DNA from: Candidatus Saccharimonadota bacterium
Lineage (GTDB): Bacteria > Bacteroidota > Bacteroidia > Flavobacteriales > Blattabacteriaceae
Direction of reading: 5' to 3'
DNA length: 32,000 nt
Assembly (NCBI RefSeq): GCF_014252415.1
Contig: NZ_CP059223.1
Location: forward strand, 210,001 to 242,000
Below are positions 25,208 to 32,000 of this stretch, piece by piece. Each line of letters begins with the position of its first letter. Within the stretch, counting starts at the first letter, position 1. The position numbers and the translations under genes were made by a program. The notes under the pieces are model-generated. The model saw nothing but the letters and a program-made list of their open reading frames with translations. It was not told the origin of the DNA and ran no database searches.

Positions 25208-25215
25208 TATCTTTG
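25208..25215 (+). promoter_or_regulatory. Candidate -7 box (TATCTTTG) upstream of rsmH / the dcw cluster
   Basis: Exact TAnnTTTG match 47 nt upstream of the ATG at 25262. Confidence 0.3.
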
Positions 25216-25261: not shown

Positions 25262-26161
25262 ATGACTTATAAAAAACAAAATCATATACCAGTTTTATTA
25301 AAAGAAAGTATAGAAAATCTTATTACAGATAAAAATGGAGTTTATGTAGATGCGACTTATGGATTAGGAGGGCATTCATTTTCAATTTTAGAAAAATTAG
25401 GAGAAAAATCTATATTAATAGCAATTGATCAAGATAAGGAATCTATAAAAAAAAATTTTATAAAAGATAAACGTTTTTATTTATTTCATAATAATTTTAT
25501 TTATATAAAAGATATTTTAAATTTTTTTTCTATGAAAAAAGTTTCAGGAATATTGGTAGATCTCGGATTATCTTCTTTTCAAATTGAAAATTTATCAAGA
25601 GGTTTTTCTATGAAAGAAAATTGTATATTAGATATGAGAATGAATCAAGAATCTAATAATTATAATGCTCAAAATATAATTAATGAATATTCAGAAAAAC
25701 AATTGTGTCAAGTTTTACAAACGTATGGAGATTTTACAAATGCAAAAAAAATTGTAAAAAAAATATTAGATAAACGTGAAAATAAAAAAATTTGTACTAG
25801 TTATGATTTAAAAAATATTTTTTTTATAAAAGGATCTTTAAAAAAAAGAAATAGATTTTTTTCAAGATTATTTCAATCTATCCGAATAGAGGTTAATAAC
25901 GAAATTTTTATGTTAAAACAATTATTATATATATCATCTGAATTAATTTCAAAAGGAGGTAGATTAGTTATAATTTCGTACCATTCTGTTGAAGATAGAA
26001 TAATAAAAAATTTTTTAAAAAAAGGAATTTTTTTAAAAAAAAATATATGTTATACACCATTTAAAATAATAAATAAAAAAGTGATTAGGCCTACAATTGA
26101 TGAATTAAGAAATAATTATAGATCAAGAAGTGCAAAATTAAGAATTGCAGAAAAATTATGA
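25262..26161 (+). CDS. rsmH: 16S rRNA (cytosine1402-N4)-methyltransferase
   Basis: 299 aa with HIPVLLKESIENL, YVDATYGLGGHS, ILVDLGLSSFQ, ISYHSVEDRIIKNF and SRSAKLR. Confidence 0.9.
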   Translation: MTYKKQNHIPVLLKESIENLITDKNGVYVDATYGLGGHSFSILEKLGEKSILIAIDQDKESIKKNFIKDKRFYLFHNNFIYIKDILNFFSMKKVSGILVDLGLSSFQIENLSRGFSMKENCILDMRMNQESNNYNAQNIINEYSEKQLCQVLQTYGDFTNAKKIVKKILDKRENKKICTSYDLKNIFFIKGSLKKRNRFFSRLFQSIRIEVNNEIFMLKQLLYISSELISKGGRLVIISYHSVEDRIIKNFLKKGIFLKKNICYTPFKIINKKVIRPTIDELRNNYRSRSAKLRIAEKL

Positions 26162-26392: not shown

Positions 26393-26404
26393 AAATTAAT
26401 AATC

Positions 26405-26587
26405 ATGAGAGAAAGATATTTGCTATTATATAAATCTTATTTAGTTAGTTTATTATTTATATTCATTGCCATATTAATCATTTACAATTTAATTAGTATT
26501 CAAAATAATTCAGATAAATATAAAAAATATGTATTAAAAAGAATAAATGATTTAAAATCATTTCGTCATTCTTTTTTTAAAAATTAA
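26405..26587 (+). pseudogene. ftsI: Relic N-terminus of ftsI (class B penicillin-binding protein 3); the transpeptidase body is deleted
   Basis: 60-aa ORF occupying the ftsI slot between the ftsL-like gene and murE. It has a short cytoplasmic stub, one TM helix (LVSLLFIFIAILIIYNL), then ISIQNNSDKYKKYVLKR, resembling the start of flavobacterial FtsI. The whole slot is 236 bp, against the roughly 2 kb needed for a full PBP3. Confidence 0.6.
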
Positions 26588-26628
26588 CATTAAAAAATGT
26601 TAATTCTATTTTTATTAAAAAAAATAGT

Positions 26629-28107
26629 ATGAAAAAAACATTAAAATATGTTTTAAATGGAGTAAACATATTAAATATAATAGGAAAATATGATAACAAA
26701 TCAATAAATGGAATATGTATAAATTCTAAAAATGTAAAATCTAATACAATATTTATTGCAAATAAAGGAATCAATACAAATGGAAATTTGTTTATAAAAC
26801 AAGCTATTTATAATGGAGCTAGTGTGATTGTTTGTGAAAAACATCCTCTATTTATATATAAAAATATAACTTATGTAATTGTTCATGATTCTAAAGAAGC
26901 GTTAGGAATTATATCTTCTAACTTTTATAATAATCCAACAAAAAAAATAAATTTAATAGGTATTACTGGGACAAATGGAAAAACAAGTGTAGCTGTTATA
27001 TTACATCAATTATTTTCTAATTTAGGAGAAAAAAATATTCTTATTTCTACCATAGGTATTAAAATATCATCTAAAATATATTATACTGAATATACAACTC
27101 CTAATATTATTGAGATTAATAAATATTTAAACTTATCAATAAAAAAAGGATGTAAATATGCATTTATGGAAGTAAGTTCACACGGAATTGATCAAAAAAG
27201 AATTTCTGGATTATTTTTTAAAGTAGGAATATTTACGAATATTACTCATGATCATTTAGACTATCATAAATCGTTTAATGATTATTTATTTGTTAAACAA
27301 CAATTTTTTAATCAATTAACAAAAAAATCTTTTTCTATAATCAACATTGATGATAAAAATTATTCAAAAATAATAGAAGGTAGTGTAAATAAAATTTATT
27401 TTTATGGAATTAATAATAAAAATGCAGATTTTAAAATAAAAATATTAAATAAATCTTTTAATGGTACTAAAATTCTTATTAATAATAAAAATAAAATAAA
27501 TATTAATTTTATTGGAAAATTTAATGCTTATAATGTTTTAGCGAGTTATGCAGCTTCTGTTTTATTAGGAATGAATTATAAAATTATTTTAAAAAATTTA
27601 AGTTTATTACACCCTGTAATGGGGAGATGTGAACAGTATGTATCAAAATGTGGAAAACGTATAATAATTGATTATGCACATAATCCAAATGGACTAAAAA
27701 ATGTTATAAATTCTATTAAGGAAATAATAAAAAATATTAATATTAATTTAATATGTGTAATAGGATGTGGAGGAAATAGAGATATTTCAAAACGATCTAT
27801 TATGGGAAAAATTGTTAATGAAATGTGTAATATATCTATATTTACATCAGATAATCCAAGAAAAGAAAATCCATTAAATATAATAATGGATATGAAAAAA
27901 CTTCTTTCTATAAAAGAAAAAAAATCTATTATTACTTTTATTGATAGAAAAACGGCAATTCATTACGCAATTAAATTATCAAATAAAGGAGATATTATTT
28001 TAATAATGGGAAAAGGACATGAAAATTTTCAAGAAATAAATGGAATAAATTATCCATTTAATGATATGAAAATTGTAAAAAATTTTTTAGAAAAAAATAA
28101 TGATTAA
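26629..28107 (+). CDS. murE: UDP-N-acetylmuramoyl-L-alanyl-D-glutamate--2,6-diaminopimelate ligase
   Basis: 492 aa with GITGTNGKTS, HLDYH, and DYAHNP. The DNPR motif (TSDNPRKENP) is characteristic of meso-DAP-adding MurE. Confidence 0.9.
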   Translation: MKKTLKYVLNGVNILNIIGKYDNKSINGICINSKNVKSNTIFIANKGINTNGNLFIKQAIYNGASVIVCEKHPLFIYKNITYVIVHDSKEALGIISSNFYNNPTKKINLIGITGTNGKTSVAVILHQLFSNLGEKNILISTIGIKISSKIYYTEYTTPNIIEINKYLNLSIKKGCKYAFMEVSSHGIDQKRISGLFFKVGIFTNITHDHLDYHKSFNDYLFVKQQFFNQLTKKSFSIINIDDKNYSKIIEGSVNKIYFYGINNKNADFKIKILNKSFNGTKILINNKNKININFIGKFNAYNVLASYAASVLLGMNYKIILKNLSLLHPVMGRCEQYVSKCGKRIIIDYAHNPNGLKNVINSIKEIIKNININLICVIGCGGNRDISKRSIMGKIVNEMCNISIFTSDNPRKENPLNIIMDMKKLLSIKEKKSIITFIDRKTAIHYAIKLSNKGDIILIMGKGHENFQEINGINYPFNDMKIVKNFLEKNND

Positions 28108-29242
28108 TCATTACATTATTTTTAGATCTTTAATTTCTATTTTTTTTTCTTTTTTTTTATCATTTTATTTATATAAATGGATGATAATTTGGAATAAAAA
28201 GAATAATTTTATAACAGAAAATATACGTCATTTAGGTATTAAAGGTGAAAAAAAGAAGATAGGTATTCCTACTATGGGAGGATTAATTATAATAATTTCT
28301 ACACTAATTCCTACTGTATTATTTTCTTATTTAAATAATATTTATATTATTATATTAATTATTACTACTGTATGGATGGGACTTATTGGTTTTTTAGATG
28401 ATTTTATTAAAATCAAATATAATAAAAATGGATTGAGTATTATTGAAAAAATATTAGGTCAAATAATTATTGGGGTTTTTATTGGAGCTATTATGTATTT
28501 TAATCCATCTATTAATAGATCCGTAAATAAAAATTTTTTATTCGAAAAAAATAAATATGGATTTAAAACAACAATACCAAGATTTTTTAAAAAAAATAAA
28601 AATGAATTTAATTATTCTAATTTATTAAATTGGTTTAAGAAGGATTTAGATAAATATACATGGATTATTTTTATACCAGTTATTATTTTTATAATAGTTT
28701 TTATATCTAATGGATCTAACATAACTGATGGAATAGATGGATTAACAGCTGGAGTTTCACTAATCATATTAGTGACATTAATTTTAATATCTATTATTTC
28801 AAGCAACAAAAATTATTCTAGTTATTTACATTGTATTTATGTTCCAAATATAGATGAGACAATAATATTTTCAATCTCTATGATTGGATCTTTAATAGGA
28901 TTTTTATGGTATAATACTTATCCAGCACAAATTTTTATGGGAGATACTGGTAGTCTTACTCTAGGTGGAATAATATCAGTATTATTAATTATGAATAGAA
29001 TAGAATTTATTTTTCCTATTTTATGTGGTATATTTTTAGTTGAAAATTTATCTGTAATTATACAAGTACTTTATTTTAAATATACTAAAATTCAATATAA
29101 AATTGAAAAAAAATTTTTTTTAATGTCTCCAATACATCATCATTTTCAAAAATTAGGTTATCATGAAAATAAAATATGTATTCGTTTTATTATTTTTCAA
29201 ATAATTTTATCTATTTTATCAATAATTTTTATAATTATGTAA
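28100..29242 (+). CDS. mraY: Phospho-N-acetylmuramoyl-pentapeptide transferase
   Basis: 380 aa polytopic membrane protein with PTMGGL, GFLDDFIKI, NGSNITDGIDGL, FMGDTGSLTLGG and PIHHHF. Confidence 0.9.
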   Translation: MINHYIIFRSLISIFFSFFLSFYLYKWMIIWNKKNNFITENIRHLGIKGEKKKIGIPTMGGLIIIISTLIPTVLFSYLNNIYIIILIITTVWMGLIGFLDDFIKIKYNKNGLSIIEKILGQIIIGVFIGAIMYFNPSINRSVNKNFLFEKNKYGFKTTIPRFFKKNKNEFNYSNLLNWFKKDLDKYTWIIFIPVIIFIIVFISNGSNITDGIDGLTAGVSLIILVTLILISIISSNKNYSSYLHCIYVPNIDETIIFSISMIGSLIGFLWYNTYPAQIFMGDTGSLTLGGIISVLLIMNRIEFIFPILCGIFLVENLSVIIQVLYFKYTKIQYKIEKKFFLMSPIHHHFQKLGYHENKICIRFIIFQIILSILSIIFIIM

Positions 29243-29256
29243 CAATCATAATTTTA

Positions 29257-30651
29257 ATGAAAAGAAAATATATAACAATCCTAGGAGGGGGAGAAAGCGG
29301 TGTAGGAGCAGCTTTATTAGCTAATAAAAATAATTTAAAAGTATTTGTATCAGATTCAGGAATCATAAAAAATAAATATAAAAAAATTTTAATAAAAAAC
29401 GATATTTTATTTGAGGAGAATGGACATACAGAAAATTTTATTATAAATGAATCTATAAAAATTATTAAAAGTCCTGGTATTTATAAAAATAATTATTTGA
29501 TAAATAGAATTAATTTAATGAAAATCCCCATAATATCTGAGTTAGATTTTTGTATGAAATATATAAAAGAATATAATTATTTAATAGGTATTACTGGTAG
29601 CAATGGTAAAACTACTACTAGTTCAATACTATATAATATTCTTAAAAAGAATAAATGTAATGTAGGACTAGCGGGTAATATAGGATTTAGCTTTTCTAGA
29701 AAAATTTTAGAAAAAAAAAATATTTATGTTTTAGAAATTAGTAGTTTTCAATTAGATGATTCTTACAAATTTCATGCAAATATAGCCATTTTATTAAATA
29801 TTACAAATGATCATTTAGATAGATATGAAAATAATATAGAAAAATATATGATATCTAAATTTAGATTGACTAATAATCAAACAAAAAAAGATATTTTTAT
29901 TTATAATTATGATGATCCCATGATTAGAATAGGATTAAAAAAATTTTTTTTAAATATAAAATCTAATTTTATTCCTTTTTCTGCAAAAAGAAAATTAAAA
30001 TTTGGATTTTATATAGAAAAAAATATTATATGTTACCAAGATAAAAATAATAAAATTCACAAAATTTTCAACGTTAAATATATATATGGTTTATATAATA
30101 TATATAATATCATTGCTATAATAATTGTTTCTAAATTATTAAATATTAATAATAATGTTTTAAATTCGGTTTTAAGTAATCTTAATTCGATAGAACATCG
30201 ATTAGAAAAAATTAATTATATAATAAATGGAGTCAATTTTATTAATGATTCGAAGGCAACAAATGTTAGCTCTACATTTTTTGCATTAGAAAAAATCAAA
30301 GGTCCTATTATTTGGATAGTAGGTGGAAAAGATAAAGGTAATAATTATAAAGAATTAGTACCTATAGTTAAGAAAAAGGTAAAAGCTATAATATGTTTAG
30401 GTATAGATAATATTAAAATTATTAATATGTTTAAAAACATTGTTCATATTATATTAGAAACAAAAAGTATGAAAAAAGCAGTTTATATTTCTTATAGTTT
30501 ATCTAAACCTGGATATAATATATTATTATCTCCTTCTTGTTCTAGTTTTGATTTGTTTGATAATTATATAAAAAAAGGAAATGAATTTAAAAAAGAAGTA
30601 AAATATCTTTTTTATAATAGAAAAAATGAAAAAAATAAATATTTTTATTAG
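29257..30651 (+). CDS. murD: UDP-N-acetylmuramoylalanine--D-glutamate ligase
   Basis: MKRKYITILGGGESGVGAALLA (N-terminal Rossmann fold), GITGSNGKTTT, NITNDHLDRY, NDSKATN. The ORF track starts at 29176 inside mraY; the canonical start is the ATG at 29257. Confidence 0.9.
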   Translation: MKRKYITILGGGESGVGAALLANKNNLKVFVSDSGIIKNKYKKILIKNDILFEENGHTENFIINESIKIIKSPGIYKNNYLINRINLMKIPIISELDFCMKYIKEYNYLIGITGSNGKTTTSSILYNILKKNKCNVGLAGNIGFSFSRKILEKKNIYVLEISSFQLDDSYKFHANIAILLNITNDHLDRYENNIEKYMISKFRLTNNQTKKDIFIYNYDDPMIRIGLKKFFLNIKSNFIPFSAKRKLKFGFYIEKNIICYQDKNNKIHKIFNVKYIYGLYNIYNIIAIIIVSKLLNINNNVLNSVLSNLNSIEHRLEKINYIINGVNFINDSKATNVSSTFFALEKIKGPIIWIVGGKDKGNNYKELVPIVKKKVKAIICLGIDNIKIINMFKNIVHIILETKSMKKAVYISYSLSKPGYNILLSPSCSSFDLFDNYIKKGNEFKKEVKYLFYNRKNEKNKYFY

Positions 30652-31774
30652 TAATTATTTAAGAGGAGATAAATATTTATGGGCTTTTATATCTTTATTA
30701 ACTATATTTTCTTTTTTACCAGTTTATTCTGCAATCAGTAGTTTTACAATTAGATATTGTAAAGGGACTTATACAATATTTTATTGTTTATTAAAACATA
30801 TTTTTTTTTTATTAGTAGGATATTGTATTCTTTTTTTTACACAATTTATTCATTATAAACATTTCTATAAAGTATCTATATTTTTAATTTTTATATCATT
30901 TATTTTACTTATTATTACAGTTTTTCAAGGTAAAAAATTAAATGGAGTTAATGCATCTAGATGGTTACATATTCCTATTATTAATGTATCATTTCAAACT
31001 TCTGGTATAGGAAGTTTATCTATATTTATGTATTCTGCAAGATTTTTATCAAAATATAAAAAAAATAAATTACACTTTATAAAATTTTTTATAAATTTTT
31101 TATTACCTGTATTTATGATTACAGGGTTAATTTTTCCTTCTAACGGATCTACAGCTATTATCATTTTTATATCTGTTCTAATTATACTTTTCATAAGTAG
31201 ATCTTCTACAAAAGATGTAATAACATTTTTTTTATTGGGAATATTTTTATCAACTACATATATTTTTTTTGTTACAAAATATTCTAATGAAAATAGAGTT
31301 TTGACATGGAAAAATCGTATAGAAAAATTTTTAAAAAATGAAGATACTTATCAAATAATACAGTCTAAAACTGCTATTATTATGGGAAAGACATTCGGCC
31401 TTGGACCTGGTAAAAGTATAATTAAAAACTTTCTTCCATTATCTTATTCAGATTTTATTTATGCCATAATTATAGAGGAATATGGATTACTTGGTGGAAT
31501 TATATTACTATTTATTTATTTACTTATATTATTTAGAATAATGGTCATAGCTACAAAAGTAAAAAATTATTTTTGTACACTTTTAGTATTTTCTGTAGGA
31601 TTTCCACTAATGATACAATCATTTGTTAATATGGGTATTACAGTAGGAATTTTCCCTATAACTGGACAAACACTACCATTAATTAGTGCAGGAGGTACTT
31701 CTATATGGATTACATTTTTTAGTTTTGGTATTATATTAAGTATTAGTAGAACTATATATGAAAAATCTAATTAG
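30626..31774 (+). CDS. ftsW: SEDS-family peptidoglycan polymerase / cell-division protein FtsW
   Basis: 382 aa, about 10 TM segments, with SDFIYAIIIEEYGLLGG and TGQTLPLISAGGTS. It sits between murD and murG. Confidence 0.85.
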   Translation: MKKINIFISNYLRGDKYLWAFISLLTIFSFLPVYSAISSFTIRYCKGTYTIFYCLLKHIFFLLVGYCILFFTQFIHYKHFYKVSIFLIFISFILLIITVFQGKKLNGVNASRWLHIPIINVSFQTSGIGSLSIFMYSARFLSKYKKNKLHFIKFFINFLLPVFMITGLIFPSNGSTAIIIFISVLIILFISRSSTKDVITFFLLGIFLSTTYIFFVTKYSNENRVLTWKNRIEKFLKNEDTYQIIQSKTAIIMGKTFGLGPGKSIIKNFLPLSYSDFIYAIIIEEYGLLGGIILLFIYLLILFRIMVIATKVKNYFCTLLVFSVGFPLMIQSFVNMGITVGIFPITGQTLPLISAGGTSIWITFFSFGIILSISRTIYEKSN

Positions 31775-32000
31775 TAACAATATCAATCCAAAAATTATTA
31801 TTGGATGTGGAGGCACTGGGGGGCATATTTACACAGGTGTAGCTATTGCAAATGGAATAAAAAATAAAATTCCGAAATCTAATATATTATTTATCGGATC
31901 TAAAAATCATATGGAAATGAAAGAAATTCCAAAATATGGATTTAAAATTAAAGGAATTTGTTTATCTGGGGGAAGAAATAAACTTGTATCTATATATTCA
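31758..32000 (+). CDS. murG: UDP-N-acetylglucosamine--N-acetylmuramyl-(pentapeptide) pyrophosphoryl-undecaprenol GlcNAc transferase, N-terminal part (runs off the window)
   Basis: My own translation from the ATG at 31758: MKNLISNNINPKIIIGCGGTGGHIYTGVAIANGIKNK..., with the G-loop GGTGGH. It overlaps the ftsW end by 17 nt. It is absent from the ORF track because it is open-ended. Confidence 0.85.
   Translation, partial: MKNLISNNINPKIIIGCGGTGGHIYTGVAIANGIKNKIPKSNILFIGSKNHMEMKEIPKYGFKIKGICLSGGRNKLVSIYS

Follow-up and report, generated by a model that had tools for sequence, protein, structure and literature searches.

In the prevailing view, SEDS polymerases act only when paired with a cognate class B penicillin-binding protein (bPBP), the pedestal domain of the bPBP activates the polymerase, and the FtsQLB complex switches on this SEDS-bPBP pair. 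[quoted passage not shown] The FtsI helix binds TM8 and TM9 of FtsW, and the FtsI linker contacts extracellular loop 4 (ECL4) (PMC7614612). The transmembrane (TM) helix of the bPBP is necessary for FtsW polymerase activity, and the TM domain of E. coli PBP3 is sufficient for septal localisation (Taguchi et al., bioRxiv 10.1101/358663). Clostridioides difficile has a divisome that dispenses with FtsW-FtsI and depends on a class A PBP instead (PMC12539705, PMC13584725). For Blattabacterium, Kinjo et al. [quoted passage not shown] A full-text literature search on Blattabacterium and ftsI returned nothing relevant. Here, we analysed a 32,000-nucleotide stretch of a genome of the cockroach endosymbiont Blattabacterium (the window) that contains the dcw genes from rsmH to the 5' part of murG, and compared it with other genomes of the genus.

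An FtsI remnant between ftsL and murE

The features of the locus are listed in Table 1. The initial annotation had described murE, mraY, murD, ftsW, and murG as intact; all of them follow downstream in this order, and murG crosses the window end. The 236-bp gap from the stop codon of the ftsL-like gene (26392) to the start of murE (26629) holds a single + strand ORF of 60 aa, whose layout and sequence we could reproduce. In BLASTP, this ORF matched congener FtsI with E=3e-18 and 36 of 60 identical residues (60%). The clear alignment to congener FtsI N-termini agrees with the initial reading of the ORF as the N-terminus of a bPBP, and by this measure the resemblance is not a matter of chance. 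Intact ftsI genes of 655-684 aa are found at exactly this place, flanked by the ftsL-like gene and murE, in 43 of 49 Blattabacterium species genomes. The presence of ftsI at this locus in congeners means that the gene was deleted here and was not natively absent, so the earlier deletion reading holds when tested on relatives. Judged by position and alignment, the 60-aa ORF is the remnant of ftsI after a deletion of ~1.8 kb.

The relic retains the cytoplasmic tail, the TM helix, and the residues that follow it. Residues 33-46 are the counterpart of the linker between the TM helix and the pedestal of FtsI; in the P. aeruginosa complex, this linker touches extracellular loop 4 of FtsW (PMC7614612). 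The degenerate tail (residues 47-60) probably goes back to FtsI residues ~50-62, as far as the R-G-N-I-Y motif, and the deletion would begin beyond it. This genome and its sister genome both retain CGT, a rare Arg codon, in the A-K-R-G motif. A Pfam search with the relic gave no matches above the cut-off, whereas congener FtsI shows pedestal, transpeptidase, and PASTA domains. The pedestal or PBP dimerisation domain (PF03717) is missing from the relic, whose ORF ends at approximately FtsI residue 60. The transpeptidase domain (PF00905; SxxK, SxN, KTG) is missing as well, the 236-bp gap being too small to encode it, as the initial annotation had stated for the transpeptidase motifs. Without pedestal, transpeptidase, and PASTA domains, the relic would be unable to cross-link peptidoglycan. 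In a wide similarity search of 5.8 billion proteins, the query alone passed, a query of this length being too short for a database of that size. In public annotations, such stubs appear merely as hypothetical proteins.

Table 1. Features of the dcw locus in the window, in order of position
Feature	Coordinates	Strand	Basis or remark
Candidate Bacteroidetes-type -7 promoter box (TATCTTTG), 5' of rsmH	25208..25215	+	Pattern TAnnTTTG
rsmH, 299 aa, opens the dcw cluster	25262..26161	+	Orthologous ORFs of ~300 aa in 49/49 congeners
FtsL-like stub, 75 aa: N-terminal tail, TM helix, ~25 coiled-coil residues	26165..26392	+	Pfam FtsL_2 PF19579
FtsI relic ORF, 60 aa + stop	26405..26587	+	Homologous to congener FtsI residues 1 to ~60
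Relic residues 1-11, basic N-terminal tail with genus-conserved R-x-R-Y-x-L-L-Y-K-S motif	26405..26437	+	Alignments
Relic residues 12-32 (YLVSLLFIFIAILIIYNLISI), transmembrane helix	26438..26500	+	Sequence reading and alignment with FtsI TM helices
Relic residues 33-46 (QNNSDKYKKYVLKR), juxtamembrane linker	26501..26542	+	Conserved in 4/5 clade members
Relic residues 47-60, degenerate tail	26543..26584	+	Codon trace of A-K-R-G motif, shared ORF end
Perfect 10-bp A/T-rich hairpin of AUUAACAUUA-AAAA-UAAUGUUAAU type, overlaps relic stop codon	26582..26605	+	Folding
Second 8-bp hairpin, ends 1 nt before murE start codon	26606..26627	+	Folding
murE, 492 aa, intact	26629..28107	+	ORF
mraY, 380 aa, intact	28100..29242	+	ORF
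murD, ORF of 491 aa (true start probably more internal), unsplit in this genome	29176..30651	+	ORF
ftsW (SEDS polymerase), 382 aa	30626..31774	+	PF01098, 211 bits, profile positions 3-353
murG, 5' part (375 aa in genome)	31758..32000	+	ORF; window end cuts gene

Divisome reduction in the genome and across the clade

A genome-wide search with PF00905 found only PBP2 and one class A PBP, and a search with PF03717 found only PBP2. The PBP2 gene lies within the mreC-mreD-mrdA-rodA operon, and its place between mreD and rodA identifies the sole other class B PBP as PBP2. Relocation of ftsI is ruled out, since this protein is orthologous to the PBP2 of all congeners. Likewise, an L,D-transpeptidase is ruled out as a substitute for FtsI, because a profile search of the genome found none of the YkuD type. 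The check suggested in the initial annotation, a genome search for another FtsI or transpeptidase, therefore ends with PBP2 and the class A PBP and no second ftsI. A cognate bPBP with periplasmic domains for FtsW is not encoded in this genome. Both of these enzymes, PBP2 and the class A PBP, remain intact throughout the 6 FtsI-less genomes.

The initial annotation had framed the change as a loss of ftsI only, and this needs correction: FtsQ is absent, FtsL and FtsB are also reduced, and five genomes are affected. The FtsL-like stub scores 43.6 bits against PF19579 (cut-off 24.6) over profile positions 3-57 of 100, compared with 109.6 bits over positions 2-99 for a full-length congener FtsL, and it lacks the C-terminal 35-40 residues present in congeners (103-131 aa). 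The FtsB stub has 59 aa (genome positions 103450-103629), versus ~95-115 aa in congeners. It reaches 14.5 bits against FtsB/DivIC PF04977, under the cut-off of 28.9, and its orthology is based on synteny beside mnmG and on alignment with congener FtsB. FtsQ has left no stub in this genome. FtsA and FtsZ are intact here and nearly unchanged across the FtsI-less genomes (0.00-0.03 of genus-invariant columns).

The same ftsI truncation occurs in five Blattabacterium species genomes of one clade. A tree built from 8 proteins (3285 columns) groups these genomes with an SH-aLRT of 100; it is a quick LG+G4 tree with long, compositionally deviant branches inside the clade, and monophyly is also supported by the shared truncations. 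The stub ORFs of three clade lineages end near one common FtsI residue, and the ~600 codons downstream of the stub are deleted in all five members. For exact mapping of the 3' deletion boundary, the spacers between stub and murE are too short and too A/T-rich to be aligned. In two clade members, G011 and G015, both the FtsL and the FtsB stubs are lost. The upstream ftsL gene has been deleted there in addition to the downstream ftsI codons, so that the stub stands as an island between two deletions. A sixth FtsI-less genome, G030, carries a decaying FtsI copy. It adjoins the FtsI-containing genome G009 in the unconstrained tree, and an AU test did not reject its joining the stub clade (p=0.125), which indicates one or two FtsI inactivation events, not firmly two. 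As read from these genomes, the loss of the FtsQ/FtsL/FtsB/FtsI periplasmic module is old and clade-wide.

FtsW of this genome scores 211 bits against PF01098, level with FtsI-containing relatives, and retains the catalytic Asp (SYSDF, aligned to HTDF of Thermus thermophilus RodA, structure 6bar). Here 8% of its genus-invariant columns are changed. The three genomes that keep every stub have fractions of 0.08-0.10, and the two that lack the FtsL and FtsB stubs have 0.29 and 0.46. FtsW is strongly relaxed in G011, G015, and G030. In G011, the changed fraction is 0.50-0.53 in the periplasmic loops and only 0.11 in helices 8-9. By these comparisons, FtsW of the present genome is intact, yet somewhat less constrained than in FtsI-containing genomes.

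Selection on the stub and its possible roles

Each of the five clade members has an open stub ORF, 58-71 aa in length. Fourfold-degenerate sites differ by 0.23-0.53 between members, and there are 42-45 single-base changes that would bring a stop codon into a stub ORF. With 0.3 substitutions per site, the neutral survival probability of such an ORF is ~0.01 per lineage, compared with five of five observed open. The cytoplasmic and TM part shows 47-81% identity among the five members, and a 45-residue core shows 56-80% among four of them. The core identity equals that of the same segment in intact FtsI at equal overall divergence (mean 63%), and the decaying G030 FtsI has 27% over the compared segment. 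Thus, the stub evolves about as slowly as this segment of intact FtsI in four of five members, and the G030 copy does not; the G015 stub is much more diverged, with 35% identity to full-length FtsI. Among pairs of comparable divergence, the stub has a pN of 0.17-0.23, versus 0.16 for intact FtsI and 0.33-0.39 for G030. The stub value is slightly higher than that of intact FtsI.

Two independent contrasts gave 18, 6, and 25 differences at codon positions 1, 2, and 3, respectively. The stub pN/pS was 0.23-0.94 and not below 1 in every pair, a ratio that is noisy owing to the shortness of the stub. Across lineages, maintenance of the ORF and constraint on its amino acids are found with moderate support from a small sample. 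It is likely, on these substitution patterns, that purifying selection keeps the stub as a translated small membrane protein. The conservation lends indirect support to the suggestion in the initial annotation that the relic may still be expressed in this form. Within the stub, conservation is highest in the cytoplasmic motif. The case of G030 illustrates that FtsI can decay without leaving a well-conserved stub.

Taken with the state of FtsW, the data suggest, with a fair degree of probability, that the FtsI anchor is a selected small membrane protein still pairing with FtsW and not mere debris. The stub helix would pack on helices 8 and 9 of FtsW, the helices of FtsL and FtsB would lie beside it, and this would maintain either the stability of FtsW or its lipid II polymerase activity at the FtsZ/FtsA ring. 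Cross-links in the glycan made by FtsW would come from PBP2 or the class A PBP. That the stub supports FtsW as in the divisome core, with cross-linking via PBP2 or the class A PBP, is a more specific proposal that we hold at close to an even chance. We only tentatively extend it to the clade, which may run a stripped divisome synthase consisting of FtsW and the TM stubs of FtsI, FtsL, and FtsB, devoid of a periplasmic pedestal, a transpeptidase, FtsQ, and a coiled-coil regulator, and with cross-linking left to PBP2 or a class A PBP. Loss of the module would have been stepwise and slow, with this genome at an early, still functional stage, and the decay of FtsW where the FtsL and FtsB stubs are lost fits such a course. 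The conservation of helices 8-9 amid loop decay in G011 FtsW points back to a contact with FtsW. The stub persists with a degenerate FtsW in G011 and G015, suggesting that it does something other than strictly support FtsW catalysis or that its loss lags. The membrane orientation of the stub as a free peptide is uncertain, since its C-terminal tail is more basic than its N-terminus.

The gap between relic and murE also contains two hairpins, which fold jointly at -10.4 kcal/mol (z = -3.6, better than 200 of 200 shuffles). The initial annotation had noted a weak hairpin at 26584-26603; it is real, but its stem is longer (26582-26605) and, given the z-score of -3.6, it is not weak. The 10-bp stem has one G-C pair, with a T-rich run downstream. 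A scan for intrinsic terminators, which uses a criterion of a G+C-rich stem, found none, as fewer than 3 G-C pairs occur in the stem. The hairpin sequence is missing in G010, the sister genome and nearest relative. The few G-C pairs and this absence speak against the hairpin as a terminator at the deletion junction, and we treat it, from its predicted fold and distribution, as lineage-specific and not a canonical terminator. As for promoters, the candidate box at 25208 is the only + strand TAnnTTTG match between tgt and murE, a match to consensus only of a motif that is not enriched in the window. Between rsmH and murE, no Bacteroidetes -7 box was found on the + strand and sigma-70-like matches were below the shuffle mean, which speaks against an internal promoter in this stretch.

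Other explanations of the stub have to be weighed against pairing with FtsW. It could be a true FtsI remnant without function that deletions have simply not reached yet, with FtsW using PBP2 or the class A PBP or being on its way out. Erosion fragments are normal in Blattabacterium, where 200 of 566 genes are lost in some lineage according to the main text of PMC8382890, and FtsW is mildly relaxed here and strongly in G011, G015, and G030. Some stub pN/pS values near 1, the diverged G015 stub, and the annotation of the stubs as hypothetical proteins only would also suit a functionless leftover. However, the ORF has stayed open in all five members despite near-saturated neutral divergence, where ~0.01 per lineage is expected, and deletions did remove the ~600 downstream codons in all five as well as upstream ftsL in G011 and G015. 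Moreover, the stub is as conserved as intact FtsI and well above the decaying G030 copy, and second codon positions are spared. We therefore regard a neutral leftover as unlikely.

It is very improbable that the locus acts at the nucleic-acid level, by an internal promoter, by translational coupling into murE, or by an attenuator formed by the hairpins at 26582-26627, the peptide being irrelevant. Genomes with FtsI have overlapping ftsI stop and murE start codons (ATGA), so that translation of murE may have needed an upstream ORF; in G010, the stop codon of the FtsL stub and the start codon of the FtsI stub overlap as well; and the hairpins, which beat all 200 shuffles, directly adjoin the start codon of murE. 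Coupling could account for an ORF that stays open, but not for conserved amino acids or spared second codon positions. The spacer between stub and murE (~10-70 nt) differs in length and sequence in all five genomes, the hairpin is missing in the nearest relative, and neither a + strand -7 box nor an excess of sigma-70-like matches over shuffles occurs from rsmH to murE. We also consider it quite improbable that the stub is a selected small membrane protein with a role apart from FtsW, either as an FtsA/FtsZ-membrane scaffold through the R-x-R-Y-x-L-L-Y-K-S-Y motif or as a partner of RodA-PBP2. The persistence of the stub in G011 and G015 with degenerate FtsW catalytic loops, the cytoplasmic motif as its best-conserved part, and the almost unchanged FtsA and FtsZ throughout (0.00-0.03) would accord with such a role. 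Against it, helices 8-9 of G011 FtsW, the docking site of the FtsI helix, are conserved while the loops decay, and we know of no interaction of FtsI tails with FtsA/FtsZ or RodA-PBP2 in Bacteroidota.

Comparison with described division systems

Every periplasmic part of the FtsI/FtsQLB machinery has been removed here, and FtsW and its surrounding helices are kept despite near-saturated silent sites. If the stubs are functional, they would define the minimal membrane core that a SEDS protein requires, and division of the endosymbiont would rely on FtsZ/FtsA, on FtsW without a partner, and on a borrowed transpeptidase. A stripped synthase, if true, would be a natural demonstration that membrane helices alone sustain a SEDS protein. 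The six-genome series orders divisome decay from three stubs with a good FtsW, through an FtsI stub with a decaying FtsW, to an independently decaying FtsI. In addition, at least five hypothetical proteins in public Blattabacterium annotations could be renamed as FtsI, FtsL, or FtsB remnants.

Compared with congener FtsI/PBP3, the relic has the same position, tail, TM helix, and linker, and it lacks the pedestal (PBP_dimer), transpeptidase, and PASTA domains. The system of Taguchi et al. gives a reason why the helix alone could matter to FtsW, necessity and not sufficiency having been shown there. Free-living Bacteroidota with inactivated ftsI and ftsL resemble this genome in keeping FtsW and another bPBP or transpeptidase, but those cases are annotated recent pseudogenes in single species, whereas the loss here is old and clade-wide, with conserved anchor-only ORFs. 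The correlated loss described by Kinjo et al. 2021 (PMC8382890) is of the same kind and concerns the same strains (G010 is strain ALLACbim); their main text deals with metabolic pathways, names no fts gene, and does not describe retention of stubs. The P. aeruginosa bundle contains the same set of proteins as is retained here, and FtsQ, whose helix lies outside it, is the only one to have disappeared without leaving a stub. This genome lacks all of the regulatory and catalytic parts that the complex has in the periplasm, and the match is inferred from the structure of a distant organism. C. difficile offers a precedent for septal peptidoglycan without a divisome bPBP; a functional FtsW is also missing there, whereas here FtsW is kept and well conserved.

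The ftsI remnant and its locus

Blattabacterium is a fat-body endosymbiont of cockroaches, and the genome studied here (G000) is a single contig of 580,138 bp with 22% G+C, of which the window covers bases 210001-242000. We compared it with 48 congeners (49 Blattabacterium species genomes in total). murE was found in 48 of 48 congeners, and the 3.9 kb upstream of each was retrieved. The usual order is rsmH (~300 aa), an ftsL-like gene (103-131 aa), ftsI (650-680 aa) and murE, with the ftsI stop overlapping the murE start; one congener FtsI contains PBP_dimer, Transpeptidase and PASTA domains (Pfam). The 60-aa ORF preceding murE in the window aligns with the first ~60 residues of these FtsI proteins (BLASTP E=3e-18, 36/60 identities), including a basic tail with the motif R-x-R-Y-x-L-L-Y-K-S-Y, a transmembrane helix and the linker I-Q-N-x-S-x-x-Y-K-K. 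By homology, the ORF is thus identified as a relic of ftsI, as the initial annotation had proposed for the N-terminus of a class B PBP (bPBP). The rare CGT codon belonging to the A-K-R-G-N-I-Y motif survives in the weakly similar tail of the relic; the deletion therefore appears to begin directly after FtsI residue ~60.

Features of the dcw locus and of related genes (window coordinates unless prefixed C1)
Feature	Coordinates	Strand	Basis or remark
-7 box TATCTTTG	25208-25215		Bacteroidetes type
rsmH	25262-26161	+	ORF scan
FtsL-like ORF, 75 aa	26165-26392	+	ORF scan; FtsL_2 match
FtsI relic ORF, 60 aa	26405-26587	+	ORF scan; FtsI homology
Hairpin 1	26582-26605		Perfect 10-bp stem over relic stop codon
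Hairpin 2	3' of hairpin 1		Ends one base before murE start
murE start	26629	+	ORF open
murD	29176-30651		Unsplit
FtsB stub, 59 aa	C1:103450-103629 (L150:1450-1629)		Outside window; adjoins mnmG
murC-ftsA gap, 255 bp	C1:244289-244543		Beyond window

On re-reading of the window every coordinate of the previously described layout was borne out, and mraY, murD, ftsW and the start of murG are all open downstream of murE. The hairpin placed earlier at the presumed deletion junction is real and overlaps the relic stop codon; together with a second hairpin it folds at -10.4 kcal/mol, beating 200 of 200 shuffles. However, its stem holds a single G-C pair, it does not qualify as a terminator by scan, and it is missing in the sister genome G010, where just 11 nt separate the stub from murE; we ascribe no function to it. 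The -7 box, a candidate promoter for the entire dcw operon, stubs included, precedes the rsmH start by 47 nt within the 76-bp spacer that separates tgt from rsmH.

Further along the cluster, murD is split in about 22 congeners (e.g., loci L089, L091, L119 and L123) into ORFs of ~157 and ~294 aa. In the 8 genomes inspected, the break is a one-base frameshift located within a run of A9-A13 (..ATAAAAAAAAAGATG..), past which the protein reads on perfectly in the shifted frame; a 157 + 294 aa split also occurs in the other genomes concerned. That so many species have this frameshift in common suggests that the gene is not dead but rescued by transcriptional slippage. murE is split in G003 (L129) and G020 (L130).

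Distribution of the loss and erosion of the divisome module

A second class B PBP occupies the syntenic site in 43 of the 49 genomes, which speaks for deletion and not native absence of ftsI. Five of the remaining six carry an anchor-only ORF of 58-71 aa, and the sixth, G030, retains a 350-aa remnant with no Pfam match. In a quick LG+G4 tree built from 3285 columns of eight dcw proteins, the five stub genomes form one clade (SH-aLRT 100) with (G039,(G009,G030)) as sister group, several branches of the clade and its neighbours being long and compositionally odd. The stub ORFs end near the same FtsI residue in three clade lineages. Given this grouping and common end point, a single ancestral truncation is the simplest history. 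The loss in G030 looks like a separate event; joining G030 to the stub clade was not rejected (AU test, p=0.125). Two other genomes look like earlier stages of FtsI damage: ftsI of G014 (L078) encodes 594 aa, stops ~107 nt before murE and has lost the C-terminal PASTA region, and that of G046 (L059) is frameshifted into 175 + 490 aa. The reverse case occurs in G025 (L092), whose FtsI is full-length (657 aa) and whose ftsW is broken into two ORFs, 184 and 191 aa long.

The loss hits the divisome module, not ftsI alone. Beyond the window, murG is followed by murC, the 255-bp gap, ftsA and ftsZ. Congeners encode a 240-254-aa ftsQ between murC and ftsA; we found no FtsQ family match in the G000 genome and no anchor stub in the gap. 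Of the 100 positions in the FtsL_2 model, the FtsL-like ORF covers only 3-57, and it ends ~25 residues past its helix. FtsB/DivIC, ~95-115 aa in FtsI-containing genomes, is reduced to a transmembrane helix and the start of the coiled coil, ending ~33 residues past the helix without the conserved C-terminal DPKYLEKLAREKF...EDEDLF part of congeners. The FtsQ proteins of G023, G030 and G011 are truncated versions, and the NCBI annotation lists the named stubs as hypothetical proteins. What began as a single missing gene proves to be an old stripping of the divisome's periplasmic parts throughout the clade, with conserved membrane stubs remaining.

Divisome proteins in FtsI-less genomes and share of invariant FtsW columns changed
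Genome	FtsQ	FtsL	FtsB	FtsI	FtsW columns changed
G000	absent	75 aa	59 aa	60 aa	0.08
G010	absent	81 aa	62 aa	58 aa	0.10
G023	140 aa	81 aa	56 aa	60 aa	0.09
G011	231 aa	absent	absent	68 aa	0.29
G015	absent	absent	absent	71 aa	0.46
G030	109 aa	102 aa	77 aa	350 aa, degenerate	0.21

G023 (L164, C1:101374-105123) also has a tandem duplication of ~470 bp that copies the FtsB stub, giving two identical 56-aa ORFs, along with the mnmG 3' end; this is unusual for a repeat-poor reduced genome. Profile searches detected a DivIC-family FtsB (42.6 bits) in G042, which we take to be strain Bge, and showed that the genus has FtsL_2 proteins, the one in G002 scoring 109.6 bits. A syntenic 110-aa FtsL-like ORF is present in G042 as well. 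In view of these matches, a preprint's statement that Blattabacterium Bge lacks ftsL and ftsB (10.1101/2024.05.17.594780), which relied on BLASTP searches using E. coli queries, likely reflects a detection failure.

Probable selection on the stub and the state of FtsW

Sequence comparison within the clade indicates that the stub is probably translated and selected. The main rival, a neutral leftover, is unlikely though of real weight, and what speaks against mere debris is the reading frame and its conservation. The ORF is open in 5/5 stub genomes and its 45-codon core is gap-free in 4/5. Every one of the five has lost the ~600 codons downstream, and G011 and G015 also lack the upstream ftsL, so that there the stub is flanked by two deletions. 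At four-fold-degenerate sites, divergence is 0.23-0.31 for G000 versus G010 and 0.33-0.53 for other clade pairs, values near saturation when the third position is restricted to A/T. A stop codon can be reached from the stub by any of 42-45 single-base changes, and the computed chance that a neutral copy remains open at 0.3 substitutions/site is ~0.01 per lineage. The 45-residue core is 56-80% identical among G000, G010, G023 and G011, compared with a mean of 63% for the same segment of intact FtsI at equal overall divergence and 27% for the G030 copy against full-length FtsI; the G015 stub has clearly diverged further. Stub pairs of similar divergence have a non-synonymous divergence of 0.17-0.23, as against 0.16 for intact FtsI and 0.33-0.39 for G030. 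Differences at codon positions 1/2/3 number 18, 6 and 25 (sum of two phylogenetically independent pairs); stub pN/pS, 0.23-0.94, is noisy owing to the short segment. Independent recent truncations would take four to five events at the same residue, themselves needing selection. A role of the stretch at the nucleic-acid level is very improbable, as it leaves the amino-acid constraint unexplained.

How a selected stub might act is close to an even call for the mechanism we favor. By analogy with known complexes, its helix would dock on FtsW alongside the FtsL and FtsB stubs, maintaining FtsW stability or activity at the FtsZ/FtsA ring, and cross-linking would fall to PBP2 or the class A PBP. At 211 bits, the family score of G000 FtsW equals that of FtsI-containing relatives, and the catalytic Asp is kept. 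We took the FtsW columns invariant in the 43 FtsI-containing genomes and scored the share changed in each FtsI-less genome; FtsW of control genomes reached <=0.07 and the other seven dcw proteins of FtsI-less genomes 0.00-0.07. In genomes that still have all three stubs, FtsW is only mildly relaxed, whereas loss of the FtsL and FtsB stubs goes with FtsW decay. In G011, its extracellular loops changed at 0.50-0.53 and helices 8-9 at only 0.11. Because the stub outlasts a healthy FtsW in G011 and G015, a protein-level role other than FtsW docking keeps a slim probability.

Remaining synthases and known division systems

Whole-genome searches with the Transpeptidase and PBP_dimer families returned one class B PBP (640 aa) and one class A PBP (781 aa). 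The order mreC, mreD, PBP, rodA identifies the former as PBP2, orthologous to the PBP2 at ~13.5 kb in every congener. No YkuD-type L,D-transpeptidase was found in the genome, and its SEDS genes are two, ftsW and rodA. PBP2 is intact everywhere (invariant columns changed 0.06-0.12 in FtsI-less genomes versus 0.03-0.05 in controls), as is the class A PBP in 49/49 genomes. The relic identity, the lack of a second FtsI and the clade distribution are established, and the reading of the initial annotation is supported. The MurJ lipid II flippase family (PF03023) gave no match at E<=1 in the whole genome. If this holds genus-wide, another protein must flip lipid II, which could be a further reason for keeping FtsW or RodA.

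In vitro, FtsW polymerase activity requires the cognate bPBP and is abolished by removing the bPBP helix (bioRxiv 10.1101/358663, which also cites the E. coli PBP3 transmembrane domain as sufficient for septal localisation). Our literature search found no description of conserved anchor-only stubs. Partial precedents are two Hymenobacter species with ftsI and ftsL pseudogenes and an intact ftsW (PMC12516126), Clostridioides difficile, where a class A PBP serves division without FtsW-FtsI (PMC12539705, PMC13584725), and, for module erosion, correlated within-pathway gene loss in Blattabacterium (PMC8382890). In the P. aeruginosa FtsWIQBL complex (PMC7614612), the helix of FtsI lies against FtsW TM8 and TM9 with the following linker touching extracellular loop 4, the FtsL helix contacts FtsW TM1, and the FtsQ helix lies outside the FtsW-FtsI-FtsL-FtsB membrane bundle. 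The pieces retained in G000 are exactly the members of this bundle, and FtsQ, outside it, is the sole protein lost without trace.
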